From assembly GCA_963762255.1 (NCBI GenBank), contig CAVXKA010000001.1, positions 672,001 through 736,000 on the forward strand: a DNA stretch of 64,000 nt, in the 5' to 3' direction. The stretch is from Candidatus Eiseniibacteriota bacterium (GTDB lineage: Bacteria; Eisenbacteria; RBG-16-71-46; JABDJR01). Numbering within the stretch: the stretch's first letter is position 1; every line of letters starts with the position of its first letter. Position numbers and translations under genes: made by a program. Shown piece by piece: positions 7,190 to 28,836 of this stretch. Under the pieces are notes generated by a model, which was not told the DNA's origin, made no database searches, and was given only the letters and a program-made list of their open reading frames with translations.

Positions 7190-7230
7190 CAGGGGATCGA
7201 TTCGAGCGGCAACGCGCGAAGAGCGGAGAG

Positions 7231-7266
7231 CAAAACGAAACCCCCGGGCGGTATGCCCGGGGGCTT
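7231..7266 (-). terminator. Intrinsic terminator (probably bidirectional)
   Basis: Stem cccccgggc/gcccggggg followed by tttcgttttg on the minus strand. Confidence 0.7.
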
Positions 7267-7450
7267 CTCAGTAGCGACACCTGGGGGGGGTAGGTTCGCT
7301 ACGTCACCCTGAAAACCACCCTGCGGGTGAGATAGGGGGCAACGGCGCCTCACGGGGTGCCGCGCTGCCCTACGACCTTGCGGCCGCACCCCATGTATCG
7401 GATCGGCTCTCCCCGACTTGATCGCTTTCGCCGCCGCGGAACCGGAGCGC
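7231..7450 (-). ncRNA. Candidate structured ncRNA 1 (boundaries approximate)
   Basis: Minus-strand stems tgcggcc-GCAA-ggtcgta, tcaccc/gggtga and gtagcga/tcgctac with a C8 loop, ending in a terminator. Confidence 0.5.
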
Positions 7451-7528
7451 GAGTTTTCACCCAACCCGCCCGGGTCGGGCCGCCTAACTGGCTGGTAGAC
7501 TTCACGTCCCCACCACGAGGAGGCCCGC

Positions 7529-9127
7529 GTGATCCCCGATTCCGAACACAAGTTCTTCGAGGCCGTCGAGCGGCGCATCGAGCACCTGGCGCGCCATCGC
7601 ATGGAGAACGAGTCGGCCCTCTACGCCGGCATGCCGCTCCCCTGGGATCCCGCGGACCTCTGCGCGCGCCAGGCCGGTGTGGTTCAAGAGGGGGACTTCC
7701 CGGCCCGTCTCGAAGCGGCCTTCGGCATGGACCCGACACCGGAAGAGCACCGTCACCTCGATCGGCTGCATCGCTGGGTGATCGCCACGCTCTTCGAGAC
7801 CCATCCCGATATCGCGCCCCTCGTGCAGGAGCTTCGCGAACGGCAGATCGCGTTCCGCCCGTGCGTGGGCGATCGCGAGGTCTCGCGGGCCGAGATCCGC
7901 CGCATGCTCCTCTCGGAGCCGGACCGAGGGCTTCGCGAGATGGCGTGGAGGTCCACGGTTCCCCTCGGTGAAGCGATCGAGGAGGATGCGACGGAACTCC
8001 TTCGGCGCCGCGAGGCGCTTGCGCGAGCGGTCGCCGGCTCGGGTTTTCCGGAGATTGCGTTCCACGTCATTGATCAGGATCGCGCCGAGGCCGTGGGGCT
8101 TGTCGATGCCGTCGAGCGATTCACCCGCGGAACGTACCAGGAGGCGAAGCGCGAGATCCGCGCCGTGCTTGGCCTTCAGGATGTGGAACCATGGGACGTG
8201 GACTACGGCCTCATGCGCCTGAGCCCGCTTCCTCCGGACGCGTTCGAGGCCGTGCCCACGTTGGATGCCGCGCGCGCGCAGGCGCACCGATGGGGGTTCG
8301 ACCTCGACGGCGCAGGCGTGCGCTGGGAAGCGTGCGATCTCCCCTTCGACGCGTTGGTTCTCCCGGTGGAGTCCCCCGGCGAGATCCGCATCCTGCACGC
8401 ACCATTTGTGGGATACGACGGTTTCGGCGCCGCGTTCAACGCTGCGGGCCGCGCGCTCGGCGGGGTGCGCGCCCGCTCGCACAGTCCTCTCCTCGATCGC
8501 GAGTCACCGGTCATGATCGAGGCGGCGGGGGCACTGTTCGAAGAAGTGACGCGCCAACCGGCCCGGCTCGCCGAGATCACCGGCGCTCCCCCCCCCGCCG
8601 TGCGCACGCACCTGCGCGCCGCCCGCTTCGCCCGGGTGATCGCGCTTCGCCGTCACGCGGCCGCCACCGCCTTCGAGAACCTTGCCTACGCCGCGTCCAG
8701 CCTGAAGCCGCAGCGACTCCACGCGAACGTCACGGAGCAGATGCTGGAGGAGACGCGCCGTCCGGAAGTGCTCTGGCCGGGCGATCCGTTCTGGGTGAGC
8801 CGGCCGCTGCACGGCGCTTCGATGATTCTCGGCGTGCTGATCGCTGCGCAGACATGGGAGCGATTGCAGGCTGAGATTCCCGAGGCGTGGGCCCGTGAGG
8901 AAGCCGGCACGTGGCTGCGCGAGCACCTCTTCGGGCCCGGAGCAAGCGAGGACTGGAGAACCAGGGTGGCGCGTGCCACCGGGGCCCCGCTCGGGATTGA
9001 CGCGTTCGCGAGGGAGATGGATCTCAGCGTGAAGAGCGCGGCGCTCGCCGACGTGGAGGAATTGTCGGACGCGGCGGTGGCCGAGTACTTCAAGGACATC
9101 GACCTCAGCGACATCGACAGGGACTGA
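7529..9127 (+). CDS. M3/M32-like oligopeptidase homologue lacking HExxH
   Basis: M3-like segments (REMAWR, VEPWD, PGEIRIL, EAAGALFE, LFGPGASEDW). FNAAGRAL sits where FHExGHAL is expected. Confidence 0.65.
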   Translation: MIPDSEHKFFEAVERRIEHLARHRMENESALYAGMPLPWDPADLCARQAGVVQEGDFPARLEAAFGMDPTPEEHRHLDRLHRWVIATLFETHPDIAPLVQELRERQIAFRPCVGDREVSRAEIRRMLLSEPDRGLREMAWRSTVPLGEAIEEDATELLRRREALARAVAGSGFPEIAFHVIDQDRAEAVGLVDAVERFTRGTYQEAKREIRAVLGLQDVEPWDVDYGLMRLSPLPPDAFEAVPTLDAARAQAHRWGFDLDGAGVRWEACDLPFDALVLPVESPGEIRILHAPFVGYDGFGAAFNAAGRALGGVRARSHSPLLDRESPVMIEAAGALFEEVTRQPARLAEITGAPPPAVRTHLRAARFARVIALRRHAAATAFENLAYAASSLKPQRLHANVTEQMLEETRRPEVLWPGDPFWVSRPLHGASMILGVLIAAQTWERLQAEIPEAWAREEAGTWLREHLFGPGASEDWRTRVARATGAPLGIDAFAREMDLSVKSAALADVEELSDAAVAEYFKDIDLSDIDRD

Positions 9128-9205
9128 GCGACCCCGCGGACCCGCTGATCGCTGACTCCGATGCTACAATGGGGGACCACACCGCTGAAGAGGAGGTAGC
9201 ACCCG

Positions 9206-10354
9206 ATTTACGAGGTCAAGGCGCTCGAAGACCGCAAGGAGCGGGCCGTGCTGGTCGGCCTGGTCCCGTCCCCGACCGAAGAAGACTCCCTCGATGAGCT
9301 TTCTCTCCTCGCCCAGACCGCCGGCGCCGAGGTCGTCGACCGGCTCCGCCAACGCCGGGATTCCATCCGCGCCGGCACGTTCCTGAGCCGGGGCAAACTG
9401 GAACGGCTCAAGGAACTCGCGCGCGAAGCCGAGATCGATCTCGTCATCTTCGACGACGATCTCTCCCCCGGCCAGGTGAAGAACCTGGAGACTCAGCTCG
9501 AGTGCAAGGTGGTCGACCGCAGCGAGCTGATCCTCGCCATCTTCGCCGAGCGCGCCCACACGCGCGAGTCCCGCCTCCAAGTCGAGTTGGCACAGCTCGA
9601 GTACCTCCTCCCGCGGCTCACCCGAATGTGGGTCCACCTTTCGCGTCAACAGGGTGGCATAGGCACCCGAGGCCCCGGCGAAACCCAGCTCGAAGTCGAC
9701 CGCCGCCGGGTGCGCGAGAAGATCGCGTTTCTCAAGAAACGGCTCGAGGAGGTGGACCGCGAGCGGGAAGTGCAGCGCTCGCGCCGCCATCGCGTGCACC
9801 GCTGCGCGCTGGTGGGGTACACGAACGCGGGCAAGTCCACGCTCATGAACGCGCTCACCGGGGCCGGTGTGCTCACCGAGGACAAGCTCTTCGCCACCCT
9901 GGACGCCACCACCCGGCGCTACCGGTTTCCCGAAGGACAGGTGACGCTCTTCACCGACACCGTGGGGTTCATCAGGAAGCTCCCGCATCACCTGGTCGCC
10001 TCGTTTCGCTCCACCCTGCGCGAAGTCATCGAAGCCGATCTCTTGCTCCACGTCGTGGATGCATCCAACCCGGCCGCTGAAGAGCAGATTGAGACCGTGT
10101 ATCAGGTACTCGAGCAGATCGGGGCGGCAGGCAGGCCGACGATTCTTGCGCTGAACAAGGCGGATGTGGCCGACGAAGCCACCCTCCTTGGGCTGCGAGC
10201 CCGACACGCCAGGTCGGTTGTCTGTTCGGCCGTGCGGCGTGCGGGGCTCGATGATCTGCGGGCCCGGGTCCTCGAGGAAGTGATCCGTTCGGATGGCCGG
10301 CCGGCCACCGGTGAAGGGGCCCACAGCGATGCTTCCACAGAATCTCCCATGTAA
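9206..10354 (+). CDS. hflX: GTPase HflX (probable ATT start at 9206; first canonical start is GTG 9248)
   Basis: GPGETQLEVDRR, GYTNAGKST, LFATLD, DTVGFI and NKAD motifs. Confidence 0.95.
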   Translation: MYEVKALEDRKERAVLVGLVPSPTEEDSLDELSLLAQTAGAEVVDRLRQRRDSIRAGTFLSRGKLERLKELAREAEIDLVIFDDDLSPGQVKNLETQLECKVVDRSELILAIFAERAHTRESRLQVELAQLEYLLPRLTRMWVHLSRQQGGIGTRGPGETQLEVDRRRVREKIAFLKKRLEEVDREREVQRSRRHRVHRCALVGYTNAGKSTLMNALTGAGVLTEDKLFATLDATTRRYRFPEGQVTLFTDTVGFIRKLPHHLVASFRSTLREVIEADLLLHVVDASNPAAEEQIETVYQVLEQIGAAGRPTILALNKADVADEATLLGLRARHARSVVCSAVRRAGLDDLRARVLEEVIRSDGRPATGEGAHSDASTESPM

Positions 10355-10505
10355 CCGCTTTCCCTATAGACGCGAATTGCATTATACTGTCGAACGTTGA
10401 TTCCCCCAGACTGCCCCGTCGGGCCGACAAGCACCGGCCGGGGCGAGACGCCTTTGGTTTCTGTCCCCGCTACGGTCTGGACGACAGATAAGGGGCACTA
10501 GGGGA

Positions 10506-12251
10506 ATGGTCGCCGCGCATTCATATTACGAATTCGGGCCGTTTCGAGTCGATCCGACGCATCGCATGCTGTGGCGCAACGGCTACGTCGTCGCGATCCC
10601 GCCCAAACCGCTCGGCCTGCTTCTGCTGCTCATCGAGCACCGCGGCGAGGCACTGTCCAAGGACCGGATCATCGAGCTGCTCTGGTCCGGCACCGTGGGC
10701 ACCGAAGCCAACCTGAGCGTCAACATCGCCACCCTGCGGAAGATTCTCGGCGAGAAGCCCCGAGACCATCGCTACATCGTCACCGTTCCACAGCAGGGCT
10801 ACTCGTTCGTGGCCGACGTGCGCGTCAGCGACGGCGACGACACGTCGCCCCTCCCGGGTGCCGTTGCGACCCCGGCCGGCCCCCGCACCCGCCAGATAGC
10901 CGTGTTGCCGTTCGACACCCAGCAGCTTTCGGCGGATGTCGGCTTCCTGGGCCTCGGTCTGGCCGACTCGATCGCGACCAACCTGGTCAAGGTGAAGCGC
11001 CTCTCCGTGCGCGAAACAAGCTCGACCCGGAGACACGCAGGCCGGTATCCGCACGGGGGGGCCGCCGGGCGGGAACTCGGAGTGGACACGGTCGTGGAGG
11101 GCGCGATTCGGGGCACGCGAGACGCGCTGCGCGTCACGGCCCGACTCGTCTGCGTTGCCGACGAGACCATTCTTTGGGCGGGTGAGTTCACCGGGTCGGA
11201 AGAGGGTATCCAGACGATCGCCCTCCAAGTCGTTGCCCCGGTTAGAGCGTGGTTTGACGGGTCTCACCCGCTAATCCTTCCGAAGCCTGTGACCGAGAGC
11301 GCCGAGGCGTTTCGGATCTACCTTCAGGGGCGCGAGTGCCAGACCTCTCTCGTACCCGCCTCGCTTCACAAGAGCCTGGAGCTGCTGGAGAAGGCCACCG
11401 TGCTGGATCCGGGATTCGCGCTCGCGCACGCCGCGCTGGCGGAGTCCTACTATCTGATGCGGTGGCTGGATCTGCTCCCGGGAAATACGGGGGTCGCCAA
11501 TCTGGAGGCGGCGGCGCGCCGGGCGCTGGAACTGGATCCCGAACTGGCGCCGGCCTACGTCTGGCTGGCCATGATCGAGTTGACGCATCGGTACCGGTTT
11601 GAAGAGGCCAGGATCCTCTTCGATCGCGCGAACAACCTCGCACCCAACACCCTCTGCGTTCAGCGCTTCTACTGCCAGTACTTCGTCGTCACGTTGCAGT
11701 TCGACGAGGCGCTTCGGCTCGCCCGCCTCGCCCAGGCTCTGGACCCGACTTCCCTGGAAATCAAAACCATCGTCGCCCAGATTCTCATGTTCAGGCGCGA
11801 CTACCCTCGGGCCATAGAACTCTTTCAAGCCCTGGCGCCGGTGGATGGCCGGCTCACCCGTGCGATGTTCCTGCTCGGGTGGTGCCACATCCTCAACAAG
11901 GACTATGAGGCCGCCCTGAAGATGTTCGGGCCGGAATCGGAGGCGACCCCGGCGTGGGTCCACGCGGTGCAATGCTACGCCCACACCCGAATGGGAAACA
12001 CGGCGGAATCCGAACGCCATTTCGCCGAGATGAGAAGGCACAGTCTGACCCCGGAGTCGCATCCGTTTCTTCTCGCATCCGTCTACATGGGACACGGCGA
12101 TCTGGACAAGGTGATGGCCTGTCTGGAGGAGGGCCACCGGCGGGGGGAGACCTTCATCGCCTATCTGGCCGCGACTCCGATGTGGGATCCGCTCCGCGAA
12201 ACTCCCCGCTTCCAGGCTCTGGTCAGGCGGGTGGCCGGTCCGCGCCCCTGA
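10506..12251 (+). CDS. Winged-helix (OmpR/CadC-type) + TolB-like + TPR regulator
   Basis: N-terminal Trans_reg_C pattern (IVTVPQQGYSF), IAVLPF and TPR repeats. Confidence 0.85.
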   Translation: MVAAHSYYEFGPFRVDPTHRMLWRNGYVVAIPPKPLGLLLLLIEHRGEALSKDRIIELLWSGTVGTEANLSVNIATLRKILGEKPRDHRYIVTVPQQGYSFVADVRVSDGDDTSPLPGAVATPAGPRTRQIAVLPFDTQQLSADVGFLGLGLADSIATNLVKVKRLSVRETSSTRRHAGRYPHGGAAGRELGVDTVVEGAIRGTRDALRVTARLVCVADETILWAGEFTGSEEGIQTIALQVVAPVRAWFDGSHPLILPKPVTESAEAFRIYLQGRECQTSLVPASLHKSLELLEKATVLDPGFALAHAALAESYYLMRWLDLLPGNTGVANLEAAARRALELDPELAPAYVWLAMIELTHRYRFEEARILFDRANNLAPNTLCVQRFYCQYFVVTLQFDEALRLARLAQALDPTSLEIKTIVAQILMFRRDYPRAIELFQALAPVDGRLTRAMFLLGWCHILNKDYEAALKMFGPESEATPAWVHAVQCYAHTRMGNTAESERHFAEMRRHSLTPESHPFLLASVYMGHGDLDKVMACLEEGHRRGETFIAYLAATPMWDPLRETPRFQALVRRVAGPRP

Positions 12252-12264
12252 CCCTTGGATATAT

Positions 12265-12280
12265 TTGTAAAGATTTACAA
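12265..12280. promoter_or_regulatory. Palindrome TTGTAAA-GA-TTTACAA (putative TF site)
   Basis: Perfect 7-bp arms in an AT-rich patch upstream of candidate ncRNA 2; TAGTCT at 12312-12317. Confidence 0.55.
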
Positions 12281-12324
12281 CTCTTGCGTGTCCGTGATTC
12301 GAATCTGGGACTAGTCTGCTCTAT

Positions 12325-12548
12325 CAGAAGACTCTCTCTGACCGGGTGCCGAACGATGGAGTCACGCGGGGCGGGGCGGAATCCTCCGCTTCACCCCAAG
12401 ACCTCCGGAGTTGCAGAGCGGCACGGTCCGGCCGGCGCGATAACTGGTCTTCGGGCGCGCGTTGGGCGCAGGAAACTGTTGCCTGGGGGAAACGGTGCCC
12501 GATCACCCTTCGATCCGCTTTTCCGGTCGACCGTGCCGCGTTTTCTTG
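12325..12548 (+). ncRNA. Candidate structured ncRNA 2 (boundaries approximate)
   Basis: Lies between convergent genes. Perfect 11-bp stem 12418-12428/12529-12539 encloses several hairpins and is followed by a U-run; another hairpin at 12368-12397. Confidence 0.55.
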
Positions 12549-12576
12549 CCCGCACAGACGGAAGCGAACGGGACCC

Positions 12577-13251
12577 TTACCCCGGCTGCACCCCTCCGAG
12601 CACGCGAGCGTCCTCCTCACACCCTCCGCACCAGCGCACCATCTGCCGCGCCATGCGCCCCATCCCTTCCTCCATTTCGAGACGCGGGAAATCTCCGGGG
12701 GCGAAGATCACGGCGAGCGCTTCCGTGGTGCGCTCGCTCACGGAAGTGCGGGCGGAGTCGGAGGTGGGAGATCCGAAGGGGCCGTCATCATCGGCCACGG
12801 TGAGTCGCCCCGCCACGTGGACGGGCCCCTTGCGGATGCCCTCGTAGAACTCTCCGTCGCGCCCGACTCGCAGCACTACGTTGCCGCGCACCTGCGCGAG
12901 ATCGTAGAGCCCGATCGGCAGGAGCAGCGCGAGCGAGGACCAGTTGCAGGCGTCCACGAGCCGGTTGATGCGGTAGAGGGGTTCGCCCTTGAGCACGCGG
13001 CGGAGCAGCGCCTCCGACGACGGTCGCGCGCGGGTGGGGTCCACGCCGAAGGCTCGGTAGAGGCGCCGCGCGGGCTCGAGGCCGGGGATTTCGGAGGGAG
13101 CACGCCCCGCGAACGCGCGCCGGTACGTGACGCCAAGATCCTCGATCTCCGACCAGAACGAGTTCTCGTCGCCGACGCGAAGTCCGGACAGGCGCACGGC
13201 GCCGGCCAGGACACTCCGGGAAATCTCTTCATCGATCCGGAAGCTTGCCAT
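12577..13251 (-). CDS. Stand-alone B3/B4 (PheRS-beta editing-like) domain protein
   Basis: GVDPTRARPSSEALLRR, INRLVD, PIGLYD and DSART motifs. Confidence 0.9.
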   Translation of the reverse strand: MASFRIDEEISRSVLAGAVRLSGLRVGDENSFWSEIEDLGVTYRRAFAGRAPSEIPGLEPARRLYRAFGVDPTRARPSSEALLRRVLKGEPLYRINRLVDACNWSSLALLLPIGLYDLAQVRGNVVLRVGRDGEFYEGIRKGPVHVAGRLTVADDDGPFGSPTSDSARTSVSERTTEALAVIFAPGDFPRLEMEEGMGRMARQMVRWCGGCEEDARVLGGVQPG

Positions 13252-15314
13252 CACGGCTCTCCCACAGCGCGCGACGAAGGAAGGAAGCGGAACACGGTCG
13301 CCTCGGGGTTCCACCAGACGATCTCGAAGCGATCCGGCCGGCGGCCCATGAAGCTTGTGCCGGCGCGCGCGCTGCCGTGATCGCTGGTGCGCCACAACGC
13401 GTACAACGGCCCCACGTTTTCGGCGGCGAACGCATCGAGAGCGGCCAGTGTCGCCGTCGTGTCGACGGGGACGACGGGGGGGCGCGGATACCGCGAGTCC
13501 ACGTACACGCCCACGAGCGCGTCCCGCACGTCGCGACGGCGATTCATCTCCGCCGCCGGGTAGCCCCAGAAATGGGCGTAGGGCTCGCGTCCCCAGTACT
13601 GGCGGCGCGGCGCGAGCACGAGCACGTCGGCGCGCTCCTGCGAATCGATGAAGACCGCGTCGGGCGGCGTACGCTCGGCCATCCAGGCGTAGAGAGAACG
13701 CTCATCTAGGGAGATCGGGGCCGGAGCCTTCTGGAAGAGGTACACGGCGAGGTAGAGCGCCGACATGGGGACGCACATCGCAATGGGGATTGCCCACGCC
13801 CACATGCCATGGCCCCGGGCGCGGAGCGCTTTCCACCAACGCGCGAGCGTCCACCCCGCCGCGACGGCGGGGAAGAGGTAGAACACGAAGGGCATCTTGT
13901 CGGTGGTGTTGGTCGTGGGGAGCACGGTCCAGAGCGCCGCGATCATCATGCCCAAGGCCAGCCCCTGGAACACGCGGGCGCCCGGCCGCGCACCCAATCT
14001 CCAGAGCGCGGGACCGCCGAGGACGAGCGCCGCCGAGGATGCGATGAGGATTCCCGCCCACGCCGGCGACCACCCGATCGGGAAGGGGGCCCGGGTGCGG
14101 CCCACCGTGCTGAGGAAGATCGGCGCTGCCAACGCGCTGCCACACGCGAAAGCCATCGCGCCCATCACCACGAGACGCCGAGGCACCGCACCGGGACGAA
14201 CGAGCAGAAGGACCCCCGCAAGCAGCAACCCCAACCCACCGGCCCCGGCCAGTCCAGGATTCCATACCCACATGCCGAACGCAGCCAGAGCCACGCCCAC
14301 GAATCGGCGCGGGGACTCACCGGCGACTCGGGACGGCATCGACATGGACCGCGCCCAGCCCACGAGTCCCTCGCCGAGCCAGGCCAGAGACGTGACGGCG
14401 CCCCCGAACGCGGTCATCACCAGGTATTTGTTGAGAAAAGCAGGCGGGCTCCCGTAGAGAGACGTGAACGCCAGAACTTGATCAAAGGTGAACGGACGGA
14501 GCGAGAACAGACGGCGCAGTTCTCCCCAACCCGCGGTCTCCCCCACGAACGCGCGCGCAAGCTTCACACCGAATCCGAGGACGAAGAACGCATCGAGCCC
14601 GAGCGGCACGAAGAGAGCGGCGAAGAACGCCTCGCGGCCCGGCCGGCCCGCACCGCGCGAGAGCGCGTAGACCGCGCCGCCCAGCGAGACCAGCCAGAAC
14701 GTATTGAGGAGCCCGCCCAAGTCCCAGGCCGCCACACCCGCTGCCTCCGCCCACACCGCGAGCATCGCGTGATAGAACCAGACGTAGTTGAGAGAGAGCC
14801 CCGCGAAGTACGGATCGCCGGGAGGGACGCCGCGCGCTGCGATCTCGAAGACGACGGCGGTGTGGAACACCGCATCGCTGCGCATGCGTACCCAGGGACG
14901 AAGCGCATGCGGGAGGAGCGCGAGCGCAGCGAGAACGACGAGCCACACGATCAGCCGCCGCTCCCATCGCGGCATGGGGCCGCCGGGGCTGTGCCCGCGG
15001 AGCAGTGCTAGAAACCCGGCGGCATAGGCCGCGGCGAGACAGAGCTGCGCCGCGACGGAAACGGAGAGGCCTAGCGCGAGAAGCACGGTGGCGGCGGCCC
15101 CGGAAACGAGAGGACCGATGAAGAGCGCGCGTGCGATCACGAGCCAGCCGCGTGCGCCGCCGCCAAGCGCGCGGGAAACGGCGAATCCGGGAGCGAATCC
15201 GAGGCCCACCGCCGCGCCGAGCCAGCGCAACGGCACCGCGTCGAACGCAGCCCCGGCGATCCAGGCCGCCGCCCCGACCGCCAGAGGCGCGGCCCACGCC
15301 GTTCCGCGCCTCAT
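13251..15314 (-). CDS. Polytopic membrane protein (GT-C/DUF2298-like)
   Basis: Many TM segments; SDAVFH...PPGDPYFAGLSLNYVWFYH; C-terminal WMAERTPPDAVF. Confidence 0.6.
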   Translation of the reverse strand: MRRGTAWAAPLAVGAAAWIAGAAFDAVPLRWLGAAVGLGFAPGFAVSRALGGGARGWLVIARALFIGPLVSGAAATVLLALGLSVSVAAQLCLAAAYAAGFLALLRGHSPGGPMPRWERRLIVWLVVLAALALLPHALRPWVRMRSDAVFHTAVVFEIAARGVPPGDPYFAGLSLNYVWFYHAMLAVWAEAAGVAAWDLGGLLNTFWLVSLGGAVYALSRGAGRPGREAFFAALFVPLGLDAFFVLGFGVKLARAFVGETAGWGELRRLFSLRPFTFDQVLAFTSLYGSPPAFLNKYLVMTAFGGAVTSLAWLGEGLVGWARSMSMPSRVAGESPRRFVGVALAAFGMWVWNPGLAGAGGLGLLLAGVLLLVRPGAVPRRLVVMGAMAFACGSALAAPIFLSTVGRTRAPFPIGWSPAWAGILIASSAALVLGGPALWRLGARPGARVFQGLALGMMIAALWTVLPTTNTTDKMPFVFYLFPAVAAGWTLARWWKALRARGHGMWAWAIPIAMCVPMSALYLAVYLFQKAPAPISLDERSLYAWMAERTPPDAVFIDSQERADVLVLAPRRQYWGREPYAHFWGYPAAEMNRRRDVRDALVGVYVDSRYPRPPVVPVDTTATLAALDAFAAENVGPLYALWRTSDHGSARAGTSFMGRRPDRFEIVWWNPEATVFRFLPSSRAVGEP

Positions 15315-15433
15315 CACGCCGCGTTCTTGGGGAGTACGCCGTTGACCTGCATAGGTGCCGCCAATACTATCGACTTGTCACGCGGCCTCCCAGGGCTTCT
15401 TTGCCCGGCCGGTCGCGGATGAGGGGACAATCC

Positions 15434-15901
15434 ATGGTTCGCGCAATCTCGGTCCTGCTCGCGGTTCTGGTACTGCTCGGAGTCGGCTGGTATCTCGGCC
15501 ATCGGCCGGTCGCGGCGATGAGAACCACGGCCACCGAACTCGAAGCGGCAACCGTTCGGCGCGCCCAGGACTTCGATGCGAAGGCGCGGGTCCTCGAGGA
15601 GCGCGTCGCCATCGCCGAGGCCAAGGGCCAGCTCTGGCGGGCGCGTGCCGATCTGCTCGTCGCCGCGGGAGACGTGGGGCAGAACAACTACGGCCTCGCC
15701 GCCGAGCGGGCATCGCGGGCCCGCGACCTCGTTACGGGCGCGCTCGCCGCACCGGGGTTCACGATGGACATAGGGGCCATACGCGACATGCTCGATTCGG
15801 CGATCGGCAAGATCGCCGCCCAGGACCGGGACGCCGGCGCCGTGCTCATCCGAGCCGCCACCGAGCTGGGTCGCTTGCTCGAACAGGCCGGCCAGGCCTG
15901 A
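15434..15901 (+). CDS. Membrane-anchored coiled-coil hypothetical protein
   Basis: N-terminal TM segment, helical body, GAGGGG RBS. Confidence 0.7.
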   Translation: MVRAISVLLAVLVLLGVGWYLGHRPVAAMRTTATELEAATVRRAQDFDAKARVLEERVAIAEAKGQLWRARADLLVAAGDVGQNNYGLAAERASRARDLVTGALAAPGFTMDIGAIRDMLDSAIGKIAAQDRDAGAVLIRAATELGRLLEQAGQA

Positions 15902-15945
15902 GCCTCACCCTTACCCCGCCGGGCGGACCGGCCTCGGGAGCTAGG

Positions 15946-16407
15946 TTGCGACTACTGGACTATCTGGATCCCGGCTGCATCGGAGTCGGCCTTCCCTCGG
16001 CGGGAAAACGCGAGACGCTCGCGCGGCTGGTCGATCTCGTGGTCGGGGGCGGGTTGGCGCAGGACAAGGCGCGGCTCCTGGAGGCCCTGGAACAGCGCGA
16101 GCAGGTGGTGTCCACGGGGGTCGGGAACGGCGTGGCGATCCCGCACGCGGATCTTCCGGAGATCGAGGCCCCGCGGCTCGCGCTGGGTCTGTTCCCGGAT
16201 GGCGTGGACTACGATTCGTTGGACGAGGAGCCGGTGTACATCGCGTTCGTGCTCTTGGGAACACCGCGCACACCCGGGCTCCACATGAAGATCCTCGCCC
16301 GCATCGCGCGGTTGAGCAAGGATCCGGACTTCTCGCCGGGGCTTCGCACTGCGAAGAGCCCCGCCGAGGTTTTGGCCGCCCTCGACGTGATCGAGTCGCG
16401 GCATTAG
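15946..16407 (+). CDS. PTS IIA domain protein (EIIA-Ntr/Fru family)
   Basis: REQVVSTGVGNGVAIPHA motif. TTG start after GGGAG. Confidence 0.9.
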   Translation: MRLLDYLDPGCIGVGLPSAGKRETLARLVDLVVGGGLAQDKARLLEALEQREQVVSTGVGNGVAIPHADLPEIEAPRLALGLFPDGVDYDSLDEEPVYIAFVLLGTPRTPGLHMKILARIARLSKDPDFSPGLRTAKSPAEVLAALDVIESRH

Positions 16408-16416
16408 GAGCGCGGG

Positions 16417-16758
16417 GTGAAACTATTCGTCTACGTGCTCAATCGACCGGAGAAACTCGAAGAGGTTCTCGCTGCGTTCGTGGAAATCGGCATCACCGGC
16501 GCGACCGTGGTGGACAGCGTGGGAATGGGCCGGATCATCGCGCAGGACGTGCCGATCTTCGCCAGCTTTCAATCGCTGTTGAGTGCGAGTCGTCCGTACA
16601 ACAAGACCATCCTCTCGGTCATCGACGACGAACCCAAACTCGAGCGCGCGCTGCGTCTGATCGAGGAGATCTGCGGGCCTTTCGGCTCGGCGGGGGCCGG
16701 CATCGCCCTGACGCTTCCCATCGAGCAGGCCTACGGCATCAAGCCCGAATTCAAGTGA
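16417..16758 (+). CDS. P-II-like signalling protein
   Basis: GITGATVVDSVGMG and GAGIALTLPI; 113 aa. Confidence 0.8.
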   Translation: MKLFVYVLNRPEKLEEVLAAFVEIGITGATVVDSVGMGRIIAQDVPIFASFQSLLSASRPYNKTILSVIDDEPKLERALRLIEEICGPFGSAGAGIALTLPIEQAYGIKPEFK

Positions 16759-16764
16759 GGCACC

Positions 16765-17394
16765 ATGAACGACCGACATCACGACGCTCCTGAACACGGA
16801 CCTTCCTCCGGAGATGCCGCATCCAACCGCTTGAGCCGGTTCCTCGCTCTCGTGCTGCGCCATCGCGCCCATCAGTTCGATCTGGCTGTGGACGAGGAGG
16901 GCTTCGTCGCCTTGGATCCGCTCCTGGAAGTGATCCACTCGCAGTCCGGTCTCGATGGAGTCACCCGTGAGGACCTGGAACTTCTGACCCGCGAGGGAGA
17001 CCGCAAGCGCTACGAGATCCGGGGCGACTCCATGCGCGCCACCTACGGACACTCCTTCCGCCGCCCCATCCGCTATCCGGCGGTGGAGCCCCCCGAGCAC
17101 CTCTTCGTCGGCGTTGCCTCCGCACAGGTTCAGGAGGTTCGTCTGCACGGTCTTCGTCCGGAGGGGCGCCAGTACCTCCACCTCTCCGAGCGGGAGGATG
17201 AGGCTCGTGAGGTGGGAAGCCGGCGCAGCGGCGACGCCACCGTGGTTACGGTACTCGCCCTGGAAGCGTCCCAAAGTGGAATTCCATTCCACCGACCCAC
17301 TGACGGCCTCTATCTCGCTCTGCAACTCCCCGCGCGCTTCTTAGATTTGCAGGTGCAGTACGGCCGATCCCCGAAGAAAGGGCGCCGGCGCTAG
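16765..17394 (+). CDS. kptA: RNA 2'-phosphotransferase KptA/Tpt1 family
   Basis: LSRFLALVLRH, KRYE, RATYGHS and RQYLHLS present. HGT motif replaced by VGV. Confidence 0.85.
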   Translation: MNDRHHDAPEHGPSSGDAASNRLSRFLALVLRHRAHQFDLAVDEEGFVALDPLLEVIHSQSGLDGVTREDLELLTREGDRKRYEIRGDSMRATYGHSFRRPIRYPAVEPPEHLFVGVASAQVQEVRLHGLRPEGRQYLHLSEREDEAREVGSRRSGDATVVTVLALEASQSGIPFHRPTDGLYLALQLPARFLDLQVQYGRSPKKGRRR

Positions 17395-17539
17395 CCTCGC
17401 GTCCGCGGGCATGAACCTCGTTCCAGCCGGCGCCAGTCTCGCGTCCGCGGCCCTGGAATCGCCCCAATCGCTTTCTTGGATTTCCAGTTAACGTTTATTG
17501 AATTGGGACCGCGCGACCGCGATCGCCATACTCCCTGCG

Positions 17540-17840
17540 TTGTTGATGTGTGGGGTGGGGTGGGGTGAAACCCGGAGAGTAAACGTCTCCGGTCCCGGAC
17601 CTGACTCGCTGGGACGTACGCCAAATACGGTGGTAGCGGAAGCACTCGGCGTTCACGGAACGAACGGAGTGCGGTCCTCCGACTGGGGATGATGGGGGTT
17701 CGGCGCCCCGGCGAGGGTCCGGGTCTTTCGAAAGGAACGCTGGCCGCTTTCAGCAATCTCCCGAACAGCGCCCTCGGGTAGCCTCGGGAGGACCTTCGCC
17801 GGGCTTAGGCGAGGAAGCGCCGCGTTCCTTTCTGTTTTTT
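17540..17840 (+). ncRNA. Candidate structured ncRNA 3 (two multibranch domains; 5' end approximate)
   Basis: Stems 17594-17613/17707-17723 and 17730-17740/17822-17832 each enclose several hairpins; ends TGTTTTTT. Confidence 0.65.
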
Positions 17841-17946
17841 CAGCCCGATTCCCCTCCATCGCGCGGCCGGATGACTCATTGTCGATTTTGTAGTCTTTTG
17901 ATCAGCATTACGCCGCCGCTTCGTCTTGAACCAAATTATCTGAATA

Positions 17947-17963
17947 TTGGAATTGAGTTAGCG
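17947..17963 (+). promoter_or_regulatory. Possible sigma54-type promoter (TTGG-N10-GC)
   Basis: GG at 17949-17950 and GC at 17961-17962 in an AT-rich spacer; imperfect match to TGGCAC-N5-TTGC. Confidence 0.3.
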
Positions 17964-17977
17964 GGATATTGGATTGG

Positions 17978-18231
17978 TGTGCCCCTGCCCGCCGGATCAT
18001 CATGCGGTCGGGTCGAGGAGAGACAGCCACGATCCCTGCGAGCCCTACGCCGGACTGACAGAGCGGACGCAGGAGTTCGGGACGCTCAGGAGCGAAGGCT
18101 CCTGAAAACGGGATGCATGGGGGTACCGTTCCGAACGGGATGCCGAGGAGATCTCGACGACCGGTCGGCCGCAAGGCCAAGGGCTCGCAAAATCTTTGGG
18201 CTCCTCAGGAAACTGAGGAGCCCTTCTTTTT
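17978..18231 (+). ncRNA. Candidate structured ncRNA 4 (5' end approximate)
   Basis: Long-range stem 18005-18017/18153-18163, hairpins 18086-18105 and ggcc-GCAA-ggcc, plus-strand terminator. Confidence 0.6.
18198..18231 (+). terminator. Intrinsic terminator
   Basis: gggctcctcag-GAAA-ctgaggagccc followed by ttcttttt. Confidence 0.85.
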
Positions 18232-18232
18232 G

Positions 18233-19177
18233 CTATGGATCGGCCGCGAGTTCCGGCGTGTGGCCTCGGCGGGACCCGGCCAGGACTTCCAGCGCCGCCG
18301 GCGCGAACTCCTGCTGCTGCGCCGAGCGAAGCGCCTGCTTGTATCCCTCGAGGATCTGATCCAACTGCGGGATCGCCCCCGGCAGGAGGATCGACGCCGA
18401 CTGCGCGAGCTTGGCCACGCCGCTGTCGTAGAAGCGCCAAGCCACGTGGCTCAGGTCGTTCATAAGTTCGTGAAAGGCGCGCGGAGCGCGGGTCAGACCG
18501 CGCATCTCGGCAAGCTGCGCGGCGGTGAGCCCGTGACGAGCGAGCAGATCTTCGGGGAAGCCCGCCGAGGCGCCGGCGGCATCGAGGTTGGAGAACACTT
18601 CGAGCATGCGGCGAACGATGAACGCGAACACCCCGGGATCGTGGGCGAGCTCCTCGATGTCGAGCTCGGCGGAGACGCGATAGCGACGCACTCCCGGTAC
18701 GGCGAGGATGATCCGCAGGAACACCCACGACTGCGAGACACCGATCACCCGGGCGCGCTCGATCAGACTTTGGAGGTCGGGGATCGGCTCCCCCCCCGCG
18801 ATTTCCATGAGCCCCTGCTGCATGCGCAGCCACGGTGTCATGGGAAGCCCGAATCGGGCCATGGCGTCGGCGAGGGCTACCTGATCGGGGTGAGCCGGAT
18901 CGGGGCGACCCTGGTGGCAGAGGCGAACCCCGTCGCTCCACGCGCGAATCTCGCGCAACGAACTCTCCAGCGATGCGGCGCGTCCGCGGGGGACGGGAAG
19001 GGTCTGGGGCCCGAGAACCCGCATGGAGACGTAGGCGGCATAGAAGGCGTTGCGGCGGCGGGGATCCTCGAGACGGCGCGCGGCGGCAAGGAATGGGGTC
19101 TGGATCGCCTCGAGCTGCCCTTCGCAGGTGCGATAGGCCTCGAGGATCTCCGGTGTGTACTCCAATCGAAGCGGCAC
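18233..19177 (-). CDS. Squalene/phytoene synthase-fold protein with degenerate Asp-rich motifs
   Basis: FLAAARRL..RRNAFYAAY..MR, ALADAMARFGLP and GFPEDLLARHGL present; no DDxxD. Confidence 0.65.
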   Translation of the reverse strand: MPLRLEYTPEILEAYRTCEGQLEAIQTPFLAAARRLEDPRRRNAFYAAYVSMRVLGPQTLPVPRGRAASLESSLREIRAWSDGVRLCHQGRPDPAHPDQVALADAMARFGLPMTPWLRMQQGLMEIAGGEPIPDLQSLIERARVIGVSQSWVFLRIILAVPGVRRYRVSAELDIEELAHDPGVFAFIVRRMLEVFSNLDAAGASAGFPEDLLARHGLTAAQLAEMRGLTRAPRAFHELMNDLSHVAWRFYDSGVAKLAQSASILLPGAIPQLDQILEGYKQALRSAQQQEFAPAALEVLAGSRRGHTPELAADP

Positions 19178-19302
19178 GGCGATCGCTCCTTGCCCAGATT
19201 CTTGGACCGCTCCACCTGATTATCGGTCAGGGAGCTGGGGGGCGCAATCGGAGGAAGGGAAAGGGGCCTACCGGGGCACGACTGGATGCAAGCGCCCCCG
19301 GG

Positions 19303-20622: not shown

Positions 20623-20650
20623 CACTTCTGCGTTTGTCACATCTTCCCTG

Positions 20651-22392: not shown

Positions 22393-22469
22393 GGGCACCT
22401 CCTTGTCGGTGTACCGGTCAACGGGATGGGGTAGGGGTCATTGGCGGGGCAGTATACCGCGAAGAAGGA

Positions 22470-23408
22470 TCAGGGATTGGCCGGCCCGCGGGACTGCCAG
22501 GGGCCTCCGGGGGGCCAGGTTCCTGTGACTCCCCTGCCGGTCCGCAGATCTTCCAGGACTGGCAGGAGAAGAGGGCGAATCACTTCGAGCAGATCATTCT
22601 CGGGGCTGCTTCCCACGGAAAGGTGGGCGCGACGCGCGAAGGCGCGGAGCTGGGGCGCGCGCGAGGGGTTCCGCCAATAGTCCTCGGTGAGGCCGAACGG
22701 CGCTTGCTCGGGGATCGGTGTGGCTCGTCGTCCGAGAGTGCGGCGAATCGCCTCCACCAGCGTCACCCTGTCGAATGAGAAGTGGCCTGCCAGGTAGTGC
22801 AGGTCGAAGTAGTCCTTGATGCGGCTGTTGCGGTCCCCAAGAACGATCATTGCCTCGAGCTTCTCCGCGATCACGGCTTCGGGCGGATAGGCAAGCACAC
22901 TGGGGGCAGGAAAGCCCAGGAGGGTGGGATAGTCGCGTCGTTCCGGGGCGGGCCAAACGGCGTCGCCAACACCGATGTCGACCTGCATCGGAATCCGCGC
23001 TCTTTCGCAGGTAGCCACCATGATCACCCGGGTGCCCGCGAAATCTTCTTCCGGTCGAATGGGTTCCAGTCGAATCGTCCCGGTCTCGAATACCAATCCG
23101 TCGGGATCCACCGGCACCCTCAAGACAACCTCTAGTTCTCCACGGACCGCCTCGACCGAACTTGGGCCTTGCCTCAGGAGGTCAAGGTCTCTCGTCGCAC
23201 GGTAGGGGCGCTCCGCCCAGAGTCGCAGCAGCGTAGCCCCCTTCAGGACGAAGCGGTCGCGGGAAGGCGAGATCCCAAGCCGGTATAGAAACCGCTCCTG
23301 CGCGAACGCTGAGAGAAGCACCTGGTAGTCTTCTCCCGTCCGGCGGGATAGCTCTAGCAGGCGAGCCAGCACCGACGCCGCGAGATTGCGCTTGTCGGGC
23401 AGGCTCAC
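22470..23408 (-). CDS. AbiEii/AbiGii nucleotidyltransferase toxin (type IV TA)
   Basis: FVLKGA, RATRDLD, AEKLEA and NSRIKDYFD motifs. Confidence 0.92.
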   Translation of the reverse strand: MSLPDKRNLAASVLARLLELSRRTGEDYQVLLSAFAQERFLYRLGISPSRDRFVLKGATLLRLWAERPYRATRDLDLLRQGPSSVEAVRGELEVVLRVPVDPDGLVFETGTIRLEPIRPEEDFAGTRVIMVATCERARIPMQVDIGVGDAVWPAPERRDYPTLLGFPAPSVLAYPPEAVIAEKLEAMIVLGDRNSRIKDYFDLHYLAGHFSFDRVTLVEAIRRTLGRRATPIPEQAPFGLTEDYWRNPSRAPQLRAFARRAHLSVGSSPENDLLEVIRPLLLPVLEDLRTGRGVTGTWPPGGPWQSRGPANP

Positions 23409-24010
23409 GTTATCGCGTCCAGGTAGGGTTGCATGATCCTCCGCACGCGGCAGACTTGCGCGAAGTGTGCAAGGTCGCCGGCCTTTCCCCGATGGTCCCG
23501 CGTGAAGTCCTTGAGGGCTTCGATGGCAACATCCACGCCAACCTTGTTGCGGTGCTTGAAGCAGTCGGCAACCGTCTTGGCCGGGGAGTAGACCCGTACC
23601 GTCACCCCTTCGATGAGGTGCGTCTCGATGCCTTCGGTCAGAGCGGCGCCGGAGAAGCGGACGACTCGGAGCTGGGGATAATCGAGCTGGGGGCGCCGCG
23701 CCTTGTCCGGCAGGGCAATCCAGACCTGCCACGGCAGTTGCGTGGTGAGATCGTGAAACCGAAGCGCTGTGAGCAGGCAAATCACCGCGTCGGGCACTCG
23801 CTTGGCAACAAGCACCAGCCCATGGTTCTCGGTGAGCGGATGATCGGAAACCACGTAGAGTCCCCGTCCCTGCCGCTCCAGAAGGCCCTTGTCCGCCAGT
23901 CGATAGAGATGCGCCCGGGAGATCCCGTGGGTCTTCAGATCCCGGGGGCGGACGACGCCAAGTCGGCGGACGAGCGCGAGAAGTCGACGATCGAAGGGTG
24001 TGATGGCCAT
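23405..24010 (-). CDS. AbiEi antitoxin (type IV TA)
   Basis: GRGLY, ICLLTALRFHDLTTQ and YSPAKTVADCFK motifs. Confidence 0.92.
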   Translation of the reverse strand: MAITPFDRRLLALVRRLGVVRPRDLKTHGISRAHLYRLADKGLLERQGRGLYVVSDHPLTENHGLVLVAKRVPDAVICLLTALRFHDLTTQLPWQVWIALPDKARRPQLDYPQLRVVRFSGAALTEGIETHLIEGVTVRVYSPAKTVADCFKHRNKVGVDVAIEALKDFTRDHRGKAGDLAHFAQVCRVRRIMQPYLDAIT

Positions 24011-24017
24011 GGACCGG

Positions 24018-24047
24018 ATGATACATAACGTAGGTGGTTATGTGCAA
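24018..24047 (-). promoter_or_regulatory. abiE promoter (TTGCAC-18-TATCAT) with inverted repeat ACATAAC-N7-GTTATGT
   Basis: Inverted repeat at 24023-24043 between the promoter boxes; ATG 7 nt after the -10. Confidence 0.65.
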
Positions 24048-24110
24048 CTACCAACGTTTTGATACATCAACACCCGGTTACGCTACCGCAAACCACTGTA
24101 AACAAATAAG

Positions 24111-25313: not shown

Positions 25314-25320
25314 GCTCCCC

Positions 25321-26142: not shown

Positions 26143-26228
26143 GTTGCCCCTCCATCTCCGGGCCTTCGCGAAATCCACCTCGGCATCGAAGGCAAAGAAG
26201 AGCGGCGCGCAGATGGACGGGATCCTGG

Positions 26229-27503
26229 TCAGGTGACTGAGGGCGGCGAGCCGGTCCTTGATGGACCCTCCCGCGGGCTTTCATCCACCAACTCCACCCC
26301 CCCCAACTCCCTCTTCACCCCCTCCACCGCCTTCAGCTCCTTGAGCTTCTCCCCCGCCGGTACAACGCGCTTTTCGAACGACCCCACCGCGCTGTTATAC
26401 GCGTCCACCGCCGTCCCCAGCCCGCGCCCCACCTTCCCCAGATGCTCCGCGAACACCGCGGTGCGTTCATACAACTCCCGCGCCGCGGACGCGATGTGCT
26501 CCGCGTTCTCCGCCAGCGCGCGCTGCTGCCAGTAGATGGCCACCGTTCGCAACAGCGCGACCAGCGTCGTGGGCGTAGCCAGCAACACCTTGGATCGCAG
26601 CGCCTCGACCTGTAGATCGGGCGAACGCGAGAAGGCAGCAGACAGGAACGGATCCCCGGGCAGGAACAGCACCACCAGGTCCACGTCTCCCTTGAGTTCG
26701 CGCGCGTACTCGCGCCCGGCCAGCGCCTTAACATGCGCCTTGAGCGCAGCGACGTGGCGGTCCAGCGCCGCACCGCGCGCCGCCTCGTCCGTTGCCTCCG
26801 CCGCTTCCAGGTATGCGCTCAAAGGCACCTTGGAGTCGACCGCGATGAACCGCCCGCCCGGCAGCCGCACCGTCATGTCAGGCCGCCCGCCGGAGGACAC
26901 CGTCTCCTGCTCCTCGAAGTCGCAGTGCTCGGTCATGCCGGCGAGCTCTGCGACATTCCTCAACGCGATCTCCCCCCATCGCCCACGCACCTGCGAGCCG
27001 CGTAGCGCCGTGGCCAAAGAAGTTGTCTGCGTCTGCAACGTTGACGTCAGCTCGGAGAGCCCTTTGACCTGCTGCATCAAGGTCGCGTAGGCACCCTCGC
27101 GCTTGGTCTCCAACTCCCCCGTCCGCGTCTCGAGCTTGCCCAGCGTCTCGCGCAAGGGCTTGAGCATCTCTTCGATCGCCGTCCGCCGCGCATCCAGATC
27201 CGCGGTCGCCTCGGAGCGCGCCTGCCCCAACCGCGTCGCCGCCAGTTCGAGGAACTGCTTCGTGGTCCCGTCCAGCGCCTGCGCCGCCAGCGCCTTGAAC
27301 GCATTCTCGAGATCGCGCCGCGATGCCTCGACGAATCCCTGTTGATCCGCCAACACCTTCTGCGCGTTCTCGAGCTGCGAGCGCGTCACCGCTTCGCGCG
27401 ACATCGCGGTGGCCTCGCGCGAGCGCGCCCAGAAGTACGTGATGAGAAAGGCCAGCAGGGCGCCGGCCGCAAAGACGGCGAAGAGGACGGGGAGTCCGTT
27501 CAT
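26229..27503 (-). CDS. rmuC: DNA recombination protein RmuC
   Basis: RGRWGE, RPD, VDSKVPL and ATPTTL motifs; N-terminal TM plus coiled coil. Confidence 0.93.
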   Translation of the reverse strand: MNGLPVLFAVFAAGALLAFLITYFWARSREATAMSREAVTRSQLENAQKVLADQQGFVEASRRDLENAFKALAAQALDGTTKQFLELAATRLGQARSEATADLDARRTAIEEMLKPLRETLGKLETRTGELETKREGAYATLMQQVKGLSELTSTLQTQTTSLATALRGSQVRGRWGEIALRNVAELAGMTEHCDFEEQETVSSGGRPDMTVRLPGGRFIAVDSKVPLSAYLEAAEATDEAARGAALDRHVAALKAHVKALAGREYARELKGDVDLVVLFLPGDPFLSAAFSRSPDLQVEALRSKVLLATPTTLVALLRTVAIYWQQRALAENAEHIASAARELYERTAVFAEHLGKVGRGLGTAVDAYNSAVGSFEKRVVPAGEKLKELKAVEGVKRELGGVELVDESPREGPSRTGSPPSVT

Positions 27504-27766
27504 GGTCTGGTTGCTGCCTTCTTTGGGGCTGAGGTCCGCGCAAGGCGGGGAGAGCGGCCGCCCGCCGCAGTTTACGCGTTTGCGCTCCCCCGACAATGGG
27601 CAATTGGCCGTCGGTTCCGGCGCCTTGTCCGGGCCGGTGCTGCCGGCCTGGCCGGCTCGAAACGCCCCCACCCGGCCTCTTCTGCGACCCGCGGCATTTT
27701 AACAAAAATTTCATTGACTCATGTGGAAAAACGAGGGAATGTGGCGCATGAACAGCAGTGGGCAAT

Positions 27767-27804
27767 GGTTACGATTGGAATCGTAACCGTCTCAAAAATG
27801 AGAC
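27767..27804. promoter_or_regulatory. Two adjacent palindromes (GGTTACGATT-GG-AATCGTAACC; GTCTCA-AAAA-TGAGAC)
   Basis: Perfect 10-bp arms at 27767-27788 and 6-bp arms at 27789-27804 in an AT-rich patch. Confidence 0.55.
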
Positions 27805-27894
27805 ATTAGGGGCTAGACCCTGTTTGCGACAGTCGTACAGTGATATATTGCTGATAGCAAACGAAGCGACCCGGATTTGCCTATGCTGACGCTG

Positions 27895-28165
27895 AGGAGA
27901 CAAGAAACTCCAGGGAAGACCGAACCCGCGCCGGTGGAACCCGGGTTCCTCGGCGCGGCGCTCGGCGGGGGCCCGACCCGCGAAAGGGGTCGGGCGTCCG
28001 GCAAGGACTGAGTAGAGCGTAGACGAGTCAGTTGGGTAGGCCGCACCGGGGGGAGTGTGTCGGGATTGCAGGGTAGCCTGCAGTCCTGGGGGAACGCACC
28101 TCCCCCCGGTGACGGACTCCAGCGCGTCGCCGGGCGTGCCGCCGGATCGCAAGGCCTCGAACCGC
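27895..28165 (+). ncRNA. Candidate structured ncRNA 5 (boundaries and strand approximate)
   Basis: Stems 27926-33/27951-58, 27971-79/27987-95 (GAAA loop), 28044-55/28100-11 and 28062-72/28077-87. Confidence 0.55.
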
Positions 28166-28167
28166 GC

Positions 28168-28641: not shown

Positions 28642-28836
28642 GGCGCACTCACCTGCCTTTCGTCCGATGGACACAGGGGTGCCAGGAGGGGAGCCGGGCG
28701 AGTCGAGGATGCGGGGGGTGCCGTACCGAGACGTGCCTCTATTCATAGCAGCCTCGGCGCCGCGGCTCAAGCCGGCGTTGCGGTTCCCGGCCGTCCGGGC
28801 GGAGAATCCCACTGGTTCGCCTTGAAAGGAGCTTCC

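Follow-up and report, generated by a model that had tools for sequence, protein, structure and literature searches.

Candidate free-standing, structured non-coding RNA genes within 21 kb of a Candidatus Eisenbacteria genome

The DNA considered here is a 64,000-nucleotide (nt) window (G000:C1:672001-736000, G000 being the source genome) of a Candidatus Eisenbacteria metagenome-assembled genome (MAG), an assembly of 4.14 Mb in 3 contigs with 66% GC. Within 21 kb of this window lie five segments, E1 to E5, which an initial annotation had proposed as a single lineage-specific class of free-standing ~250-nt RNAs, mostly next to transfer RNA (tRNA)- or RNA-handling genes. It is suggested here that the stretch probably holds at least four free-standing non-coding RNA genes, specific to one family of uncultured soil bacteria, which belong to three or more unrelated RNA families. 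A literature search found no paper on the non-coding RNAs of Candidatus Eisenbacteria.

Families of open reading frames (ORFs) were assigned by Pfam. E1, a ~192-nt small RNA (sRNA) gene candidate (7230-7421, -), lies between a catalase gene (5756-7189, +), itself preceded by a Fur gene (5267-5665, +), and the gene of an M3-like peptidase (7529-9127, +), which is followed by HflX (9248-10354, +). E2 (+), with a conserved 3' domain at 12418-12547, stands behind the gene of a winged-helix/TPR regulator (Trans_reg_C+TPR, 10506-12251, +) and ahead of a B3_4 gene (12577-13395, -). Beyond the latter are found a 688-amino-acid (aa) ORF of no family (13251-15317, -) and genes for PTS_EIIA_2 (15355-16407, +), a P-II-like protein (16417-16758, +) and KptA (16765-17394, +). 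E3 (~300 nt, 17540-17842, +, its 5' end being a prediction) and E4 (~225 nt, 18008-18233, +) come next and are closed off by an SQS_PSY gene (18233-19177, -). The last element, E5, lies between RmuC (26229-27671, -) and the gene of a 630-aa protein with a C-terminal tRNA_edit (YbaK-type) domain (28168-30060, -), and its conserved part is a hairpin of ~64 nt (28046-28109, +, strand uncertain). Of the positions first flagged, those of E1 are revised to 7230-7421 and the start of E4 is placed more probably near 18008 than at 17980; the conserved parts of E2 and E5 are narrower than flagged.

Coding signal, taken as third-position GC well above second-position GC, was lacking from the codon-position GC plot in 7190-7520, 12252-12580, 17395-18232 and 27700-28167, so that all five segments are non-coding, as had been proposed. 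Their orientations also stood: E1 points toward the 3' end of the catalase gene, E2 toward that of B3_4, E3 toward E4, E4 toward the 3' end of SQS_PSY, and E5 toward that of the tRNA_edit gene. With a convergent gene next to E1, E2, E4 and E5, and with E3 preceding E4, none of them can be the leader (5' untranslated region, UTR) of a gene, and the co-oriented gene immediately downstream that marks a riboswitch or 5' leader is present at none of the five. Across the 4.14-Mb assembly no element has a match other than itself, so none shows the many copies per genome of miniature inverted-repeat transposable elements (MITEs), repetitive extragenic palindromes (REPs) or other repeats, and the two motifs that were scanned for are absent from viral contigs.

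Folding was compared with the genome background by minimum free energy (MFE) z-scores against 200 dinucleotide shuffles, which on the proposed strands were -2.93 for E1, -2.32 for E2, -1.68 for E3, -2.99 for E4 and -4.45 for E5. In 32 random 250-nt segments of the same genome the mean was -0.32 (standard deviation 1.04, minimum -2.22); E1, E2, E4 and E5 therefore lie below all 32 controls, and E3 lies within the background. The initial annotation had counted four upstream AT-rich patches and four stems with a U-run, and these counts agree with the finding that E1 is the element lacking an AT-rich patch and E5 the one lacking a U-run; GC falls to 0.60 near 12050-12349, 0.57 near 17750-18049 and 0.53 near 27650-27949. 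The two top sites of a terminator pattern scan were those of E4 (+18198-18223, 11 base pairs, bp) and E1 (-7267-7237, 13 bp), and E2 and E3 each have a U-run directly behind a long closing helix, so that these four carry the conserved intrinsic terminator of a free-standing sRNA gene.

No match at gathering score was obtained from Rfam across the whole window, and a search of 21 kb at E up to 5 gave none in the five segments. More sensitive Rfam scans of each segment returned, besides a 6C match described below, only chance-level matches on hairpins and terminators; for E3 and E4, nothing but chance-level terminator matches appeared at E up to 10. ARAGORN detected neither a tRNA nor a transfer-messenger RNA in the window. 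The elements had been described as unlike 6S, signal recognition particle (SRP) and RNase P RNAs, and they are indeed not these housekeeping RNAs, since genes for 6S (two loci), SRP and RNase P were found elsewhere in G000. The two loci that pass the Rfam 6S threshold (G000:C2:243811-243989 and C1:103435-103588, with 87 and 50 bits) suggest that this genome may encode two 6S RNAs. A further region, G000:C2:169609-169768, gives a weak, sub-threshold 6S-like match (28 bits) and has a sigma-54-like site, TGGCATGGCGGTTGCT, ~55 nt upstream; it may be another structured RNA gene.

E1 is the most interpretable of the elements. BLAST at first found homologues in five relatives, and a covariance model (R2) built on six sequences gave one strong match in each of the eight family genomes, which span four genera, with G002 at 49 bits and G003 at 47 bits. 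In every one of them the RNA points away from the M3-like peptidase gene, or in G003 from hflX itself; the adjacent catalase gene is not a conserved neighbour. From a conserved TCAAG start the predicted fold runs through three helices, two of them with GNRA caps (GCAA and GUGA), and a C-loop hairpin (7271-7302, -; stem GUAGCG-ACCU / AGGU-CGCUAC) to an intrinsic terminator with a 13-bp stem and U-run (7230-7267, -), detected by both pattern scan and covariation. In the model-fitted alignment of eight sequences, paired cells make up 94.8%, compared with no more than 51% once the 3' pairing partners are shifted along the alignment (the slid control used throughout), and 12 pairs have both members changed, against 1-4 with slid partners; 0 of 500 shuffles reach the observed value. 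Seven of the 13 terminator pairs are double-changed among relatives (helix 7), and the many conserved G-U pairs place the RNA on the minus strand. The run of 7-8 C in the hairpin loop (7283-7290 in G000) is invariant in the eight family sequences, the pairs of its stem covary, and it is proposed as the seed.

The C-loop hairpin is not confined to this family. A pattern for its 5' half was matched in 23 of the class's 206 genomes, a single time in each, six of them in family f1 and 17 among the 41 of family f9, and the reversed pattern gave no match in the same 206 genomes; G000 and G002 are each one base off the exact pattern, and both were found by model R2. In family f9 (loci L057, L058, L060 and L111-L116 among them), the hairpin forms part of a ~95-nt RNA candidate, in which a CCCCCC-type loop, GCCCUGACCCCCCACGU, precedes a terminator; between genera g25 and g35 the stem of the hairpin covaries. 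Public records matching the E1 hairpin motif were all MAGs of Candidatus Eisenbacteria or of uncultured bacteria. Weak R2 matches (21-28 bits) in 11 genomes of other families were rejected as E1 homologues, no M3-like or HflX gene being present within 1.5 kb of them. Beyond the family of E1 itself, only the f9 hairpin is corroborated, by pattern scan.

In a 101-nt search, the 3'-terminal 73 nt of E1 matched the whole 75-position Rfam model of 6C (RF01066) with 30.7 bits (E 0.0067). The CCCCCCC(C) loop of hairpin 1 aligns to the first 6C loop (CCCCCC), and the loop of hairpin 2, which reads AUACC, GAAAG or similar, has a 6-position deletion relative to the model. An Rfam scan of the loci of the relatives gave no 6C match at E<=1, a search size at which a 30-bit match would not pass. 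E1 is most likely a trans-acting base-pairing sRNA that needs no chaperone, a mechanism proposed by analogy. Its invariant C7-8 loop would act as a seed for G-rich single-stranded stretches of messenger RNAs (mRNAs), typically ribosome-binding regions, where a few G-C pairs would suffice for pairing in an organism of 66% GC, after the manner of mycobacterial 6C, and E1 would be transcribed divergently from the M3-like peptidase/hflX operon.

A pairing of the E1 loop with E3 or E4 as its partner, or sponge, was considered and is not supported. E1 and E3 of G000 interact with a predicted -27.6 kcal/mol, which 0 of 4000 background windows equal, and the C7 loop ranks at 0.7%, 0.7%, 5%, 12%, 32% and 2.5% of background against the six E3 sequences, but E3 is simply G-rich (36-42% G); against E4 the loop ranks at 53% of background in all five genomes. 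The hexamer UGGGGG occurs exactly once in each of E2, E3, E4 and E5, on the proposed strand only, against 0.087 expected per 260 nt in a count made post hoc. It is conceivable, though improbable, that the elements form one RNA-RNA network, in which UGGGGG would kiss the C7 loop of E1.

E2 occupies the spacer after the Trans_reg_C/TPR gene in all four genomes inspected (G000, G001, G007 and G004). Its conserved 3' domain comprises a 13-pair closing helix followed by a U-run, an inner hairpin and an octamer, GGGGGAAA (12485-12492), which is invariant in the four genomes; the 5' half (12330-12410) is absent from G001. An alifold prediction on the four sequences has 33 pairs, nine of which are double-changed. 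For G000 and G001 together, the plus strand folds with -58.4 kcal/mol and the minus strand with -38.7 kcal/mol, and G-U cells number 7 against 1, which favours the plus strand. At the same place in all four genomes lies a direct repeat, YTTGNAA twice with 10-nt phasing (12264-12280, +, 13 nt past the stop of the Trans_reg_C+TPR gene in G000), which may serve as a regulator box or as a promoter. E2 would then be a small RNA switched on through this phased repeat by the adjacent winged-helix/TPR regulator; judging from its position and the form of the repeat, control of E2 by that regulator is most likely.

E3 and E4 were found in two genera. In the predicted fold of E3, from six sequences, a 5' hairpin forms at 17572-17592, the stretches 17593-17601 and 17716-17723 join in a long-range helix, and a second domain, which pairing between 17730-17740 and 17822-17832 closes, leads into a U-run. 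Its sequence is only 44-49% identical to that of the second genus and its pairing is kept, two long-range helices included: 20 of 61 predicted pairs are double-changed, against 3-6 when slid, and the share of paired cells is 92.6%, where the slid control gives 62% at most. A common origin of both RNAs is unproven, as nhmmer models of the transcribed parts alone do not find the other element in either direction; a paralogy suggested by an E4 model that included the upstream motif was dropped, since it reaches E3 at E 2.5 only. What E3 and E4 have in common is the upstream control motif and a look-alike 5' hairpin.

E4, in turn, is the most intriguing element, a candidate for a highly constrained structured RNA. 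It consists of a 5' hairpin (18012-18033, predicted fold), a multi-helix core (18050-18177, from a six-sequence alignment) and a terminator (18198-18233, by pattern scan), all on the plus strand. With 94.1% of cells paired against at most 45% when slid, ten pairs are double-changed, all of them located in the outer helices or at the tips of hairpins (helices 1-3, 7 and 10). Among 151 genomes of the class, covariance model R1 of E4 matched in five, which represent just two genera, and it found no E4 in G001 (75% complete), G002 or G003; a metagenome scan with an E4 20-mer yielded two near-identical contigs close to the second genus, which added no diversity. The gene after E4 is convergent in every relative inspected, which shows that E4 is not a leader there either. 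In G006 the block of KptA, E3, E4 and convergent gene occurs twice in opposite orientation (L007, G006:C6:86217-89391; L008, G006:C1:18242-21416), with identical ORFs and RNA, which points either to duplication of the segment or to a duplicate made in assembly.

Base-pairing sRNAs usually conserve a short seed only. The core of E4 is invariant at 111 of 128 positions in six sequences, and from G000 to the second genus it is 85-88% identical, on a par with RNase P RNA (82-86%) and 6S RNA (86-88%) in the same genome pairs; in four relatives its closing helix leads directly into the U-run. A multi-helix junction with almost no sequence change fits a binder of protein or small molecules better than an RNA that acts by pairing only. 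E4, and perhaps E3, could hence be a decoy or sensor, sequestering a protein or folding around a ligand like riboswitch-bearing sRNAs and 6S-type RNAs; this is a possibility worth keeping, if an improbable one, as no partner protein or ligand can be named, Rfam offers no match at E up to 10, and a presence in five of 151 class genomes is narrow for a core function. As a compact RNA about as conserved here as RNase P and 6S RNA, E4 is a reasonable target for ligand or protein screens.

The motif upstream of both RNAs has the bipartite form TTGGAWTT ... WWGC ... TATTGRATTGG and is followed exactly 23 nt later by a -10-like box (CATAAT, CATACT or CATCAT). It lies at 17476-17506 (+) for E3 (TTGGAWTT-N-..GC..-TATTGRATTGG, with CATACT at 17527-17532) and, in the same form, at 17947-17977 (+) for E4, with CATCAT at 17998-18003. 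In G000 the 11-mer TATTGRATTGG occurs solely at E3 and E4, and in eight family genomes the full motif occurs solely at E3/E4 loci, the reversed-pattern control giving 0 matches. Set beside the sigma-54 -24/-12 element (TGGCAC-N5-TTGC) of sRNA genes of the Qrr or GlmY type, the motif reads TGGAWTT-N4-WWGC and thus departs from the canonical sequence; GG-N10-GC is present in five of ten promoter copies, GG being replaced by GT in four and GC missing in one. The rpoN gene is present in G000, and the canonical TGGCAC-N5-TTGC sites there look different from the E3/E4 motif. A reading of the motif as two direct repeats 21 nt apart with a sigma-70-type -10 box fits equally well.

E3 and E4 would thus be tandem RNA genes, switched through the shared motif by one dedicated transcription or sigma factor. 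A bolder proposal, that E4 with its co-controlled E3 forms a new class of trans-acting structured RNA, a sensor or decoy with an RNase P-like constrained core and a dedicated factor of its own, is doubtful. Several promoter-like sequences were also seen elsewhere. A canonical sigma-54 promoter sequence, TGGCACGCGGGTTGCA, lies at window position 47239 (-; G000:C1:719239); the genome has 11 exact TGGCAC-N5-TTGC sites, this one included. Upstream of rmuC there is an extended -10 box, TGTTAAAAT (27696-27704, -), with flanks conserved in G001, from which the sigma-70 -10 element of this organism appears canonical. An identical 50-nt stretch with TACTGGATTGG occurs at G000:C1:143720 and 144309, the copies lying 589 nt apart, and may be a tandem duplication.

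The proposal of a ~250-nt RNA is weak for E5, of which only a short hairpin is conserved. This hairpin has a 10-13-bp outer stem, an inner hairpin with a GUAG loop and an unpaired UGGGGGAA, and aligns, with compensatory changes, only to G001, which is the sole further member of the genus. Outside the hairpin, 27900-28165 resists alignment even between these two genomes, and G000 has ~85 extra nt beside the hairpin; a search close to rmuC and behind the YbaK-domain gene in five more genomes of the family gave no counterpart. Neither strand has a U-run, and the preference for the plus strand (-80.7 against -63.2 kcal/mol) is weak, as it comes from a largely unreliable alignment. E5 is therefore best described as a predicted structured hairpin, restricted to the genus and uncertain in strand. 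As regards the surrounding genes, residues ~33-394 and 425-630 of the 630-aa tRNA_edit protein match separate sites ~2 kb apart in G007 and G004; with the protein apparently so split in the second genus, the G000 gene may fuse an N-terminal protein to a YbaK-type editing domain. A 525-aa ORF (22470-24047, -) has an AbiEii nucleotidyltransferase toxin domain confined to residues 252-450 and a long N-terminal part without family.

Together, these comparisons bear out the lineage-specific part of the initial annotation, E1-E4 being kept in relatives with compensatory base changes, and dispose of the idea of one class, as at least three unrelated families are present: E1, E2, and E3/E4 with their common motif and look-alike hairpin. 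The association with tRNA- or RNA-handling genes proved mostly coincidental on comparison with relatives. The neighbour of E1 is the M3-like peptidase/HflX operon and not an RNA-handling gene; the constant neighbour of E2 is the upstream regulator and not B3_4; and G002 and G003 both carry KptA but yielded neither E3 nor E4. The adjacency of KptA, E3 and E4 is seen in five of six RNA-carrying genomes and breaks down in G004, where the pair lies ~10 kb from KptA after an OmpA-like gene. A functional tie of E3 and E4 to KptA/Tpt1 is conceivable, if improbable, because the bacterial substrates of this enzyme family are, according to the literature, unknown.

In sum, the segments are non-coding, single-copy, conserved and syntenic, their pairs covary, terminators are present, and the E3/E4 motif is exclusive to its loci. 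Several points weigh against reading them as independent RNA genes. Transcription, all 5' ends, the controlling proteins and every function are predictions from sequence. The alignments hold 2-8 closely related sequences each, and the structures were derived from the same sequences on which the pairs were counted, so that the comparison with slid controls is inflated; for E1 the fit of the alignment to its own model favours the pair counts further. The inner helices of E4 are not confirmed by covariation because they never vary, the z-score of E3 is inside the genome background (four of the 32 controls were at -1.68 or lower), and E5 is supported by two genomes. A pattern scan found no sigma-70 consensus promoter at any of the five elements. 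As to the likeness of E1 to 6C, the match is below the 6C gathering score (30.7 against 47 bits) and was not reported in the 21-kb and 64-kb searches, and the second C-loop of 6C is lacking, hairpin 2 of E1 having no C-run. Finally, E2 might be a processed 3' UTR, as a gene of the same orientation ends directly before it, and so perhaps might E3 and E4.

This last point opens the way to a different account, in which the elements are not independent genes but structured 3' UTRs, read-through RNAs or processed tails of co-oriented genes upstream. E2 would then belong to the Trans_reg_C/TPR gene, E3 and E4 to kptA, and E5, if read from the minus strand, to the tRNA_edit gene as its 3' UTR or to rmuC as its 5' UTR. 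E2 starts 13 nt past a co-oriented stop codon and E3 ~145 nt past kptA, the E5 hairpin lies ~60 nt beyond the tRNA_edit stop on the minus strand, without a U-run on either strand, and no consensus promoter was found. However, conserved motifs stand between the stop codons and the RNAs, the E3/E4 pair of G004 is ~10 kb from kptA and behind an OmpA-like gene, E1 has no co-oriented gene upstream, and in E5 the G-U pairs and the alifold energies favour the plus strand, albeit weakly. Tails of this kind are thus an unlikely explanation, one that nonetheless deserves to be carried along beside that of free-standing genes.

Features acting at the level of DNA, such as repeats or mobile elements, protein-binding sites or terminators of the convergent genes, are far less plausible: the terminator stems of E1 and E4 could serve convergent genes bidirectionally, but all five elements are single copy, conservation extends 130-300 nt beyond the terminators, and on the opposite strand the many conserved G-U pairs would turn into A-C mismatches. 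Chance folding of GC-rich spacers into meaningless stems, for which the unremarkable z-score of E3 and the 66% GC of the genome might be adduced, is the least credible account, because flanking spacers are unalignable at this distance and yet the elements keep their pairs through 9-20 double changes, four of five z-scores lie beyond all 32 controls, and covariation and synteny argue against it for E1-E4, leaving most of E5 as the part to which it could apply. Free-standing RNA genes remain the preferred explanation for E1-E4. They represent new RNA families of a familiar kind rather than new biology, and are of use as a catalogue entry: three or four new families are provided with bounds, structures and covariance models for Rfam-type resources.

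Paired or regulator-adjacent sRNAs are familiar from SgrR-SgrS, OxyR-OxyS, GlmY/GlmZ, Qrr and CrcZ/CrcY. E2, E3 and E4 have no sequence relation to these systems and resemble them in arrangement. E2 lies directly beside the gene of a DNA-binding regulator and has a phased repeat upstream. E3 and E4 are neighbours with one exclusive upstream motif, in which the GG-N10-GC spacing recalls sigma-54 promoters; GlmY and GlmZ, however, are homologues, whereas E3 and E4 show no significant likeness in their transcribed parts.

For E1, comparison can be made with two groups of C-rich RNAs. RoxS/RsaE of Firmicutes have single-stranded C-runs that would pair with G-rich ribosome-binding regions, as is proposed for E1, and RoxS is reported to have a G-rich RNA sponge; they differ in having several C-runs where E1 has one, and no sequence or Rfam similarity to E1 is seen. 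Closer is 6C, the B11 sRNA of mycobacteria, whose C-rich loops are reported to bind mRNA targets directly and without chaperones (PMC6486639). Both RNAs belong to high-GC hosts, Actinobacteria for 6C and Eisenbacteria for E1, and in E1 the C-run is restricted to the first hairpin and an extra 5' domain of ~115 nt with three helices is present. What the two have in common is a hairpin whose loop holds at least six C in a row and, after it, another GC-rich hairpin with a U tail. E1 would thereby carry the 6C design, a C-run in a hairpin loop as a chaperone-free seed, into a second high-GC phylum, and would lend weight to the view that GC-rich bacteria have a general solution in short kissing contacts rich in G-C.

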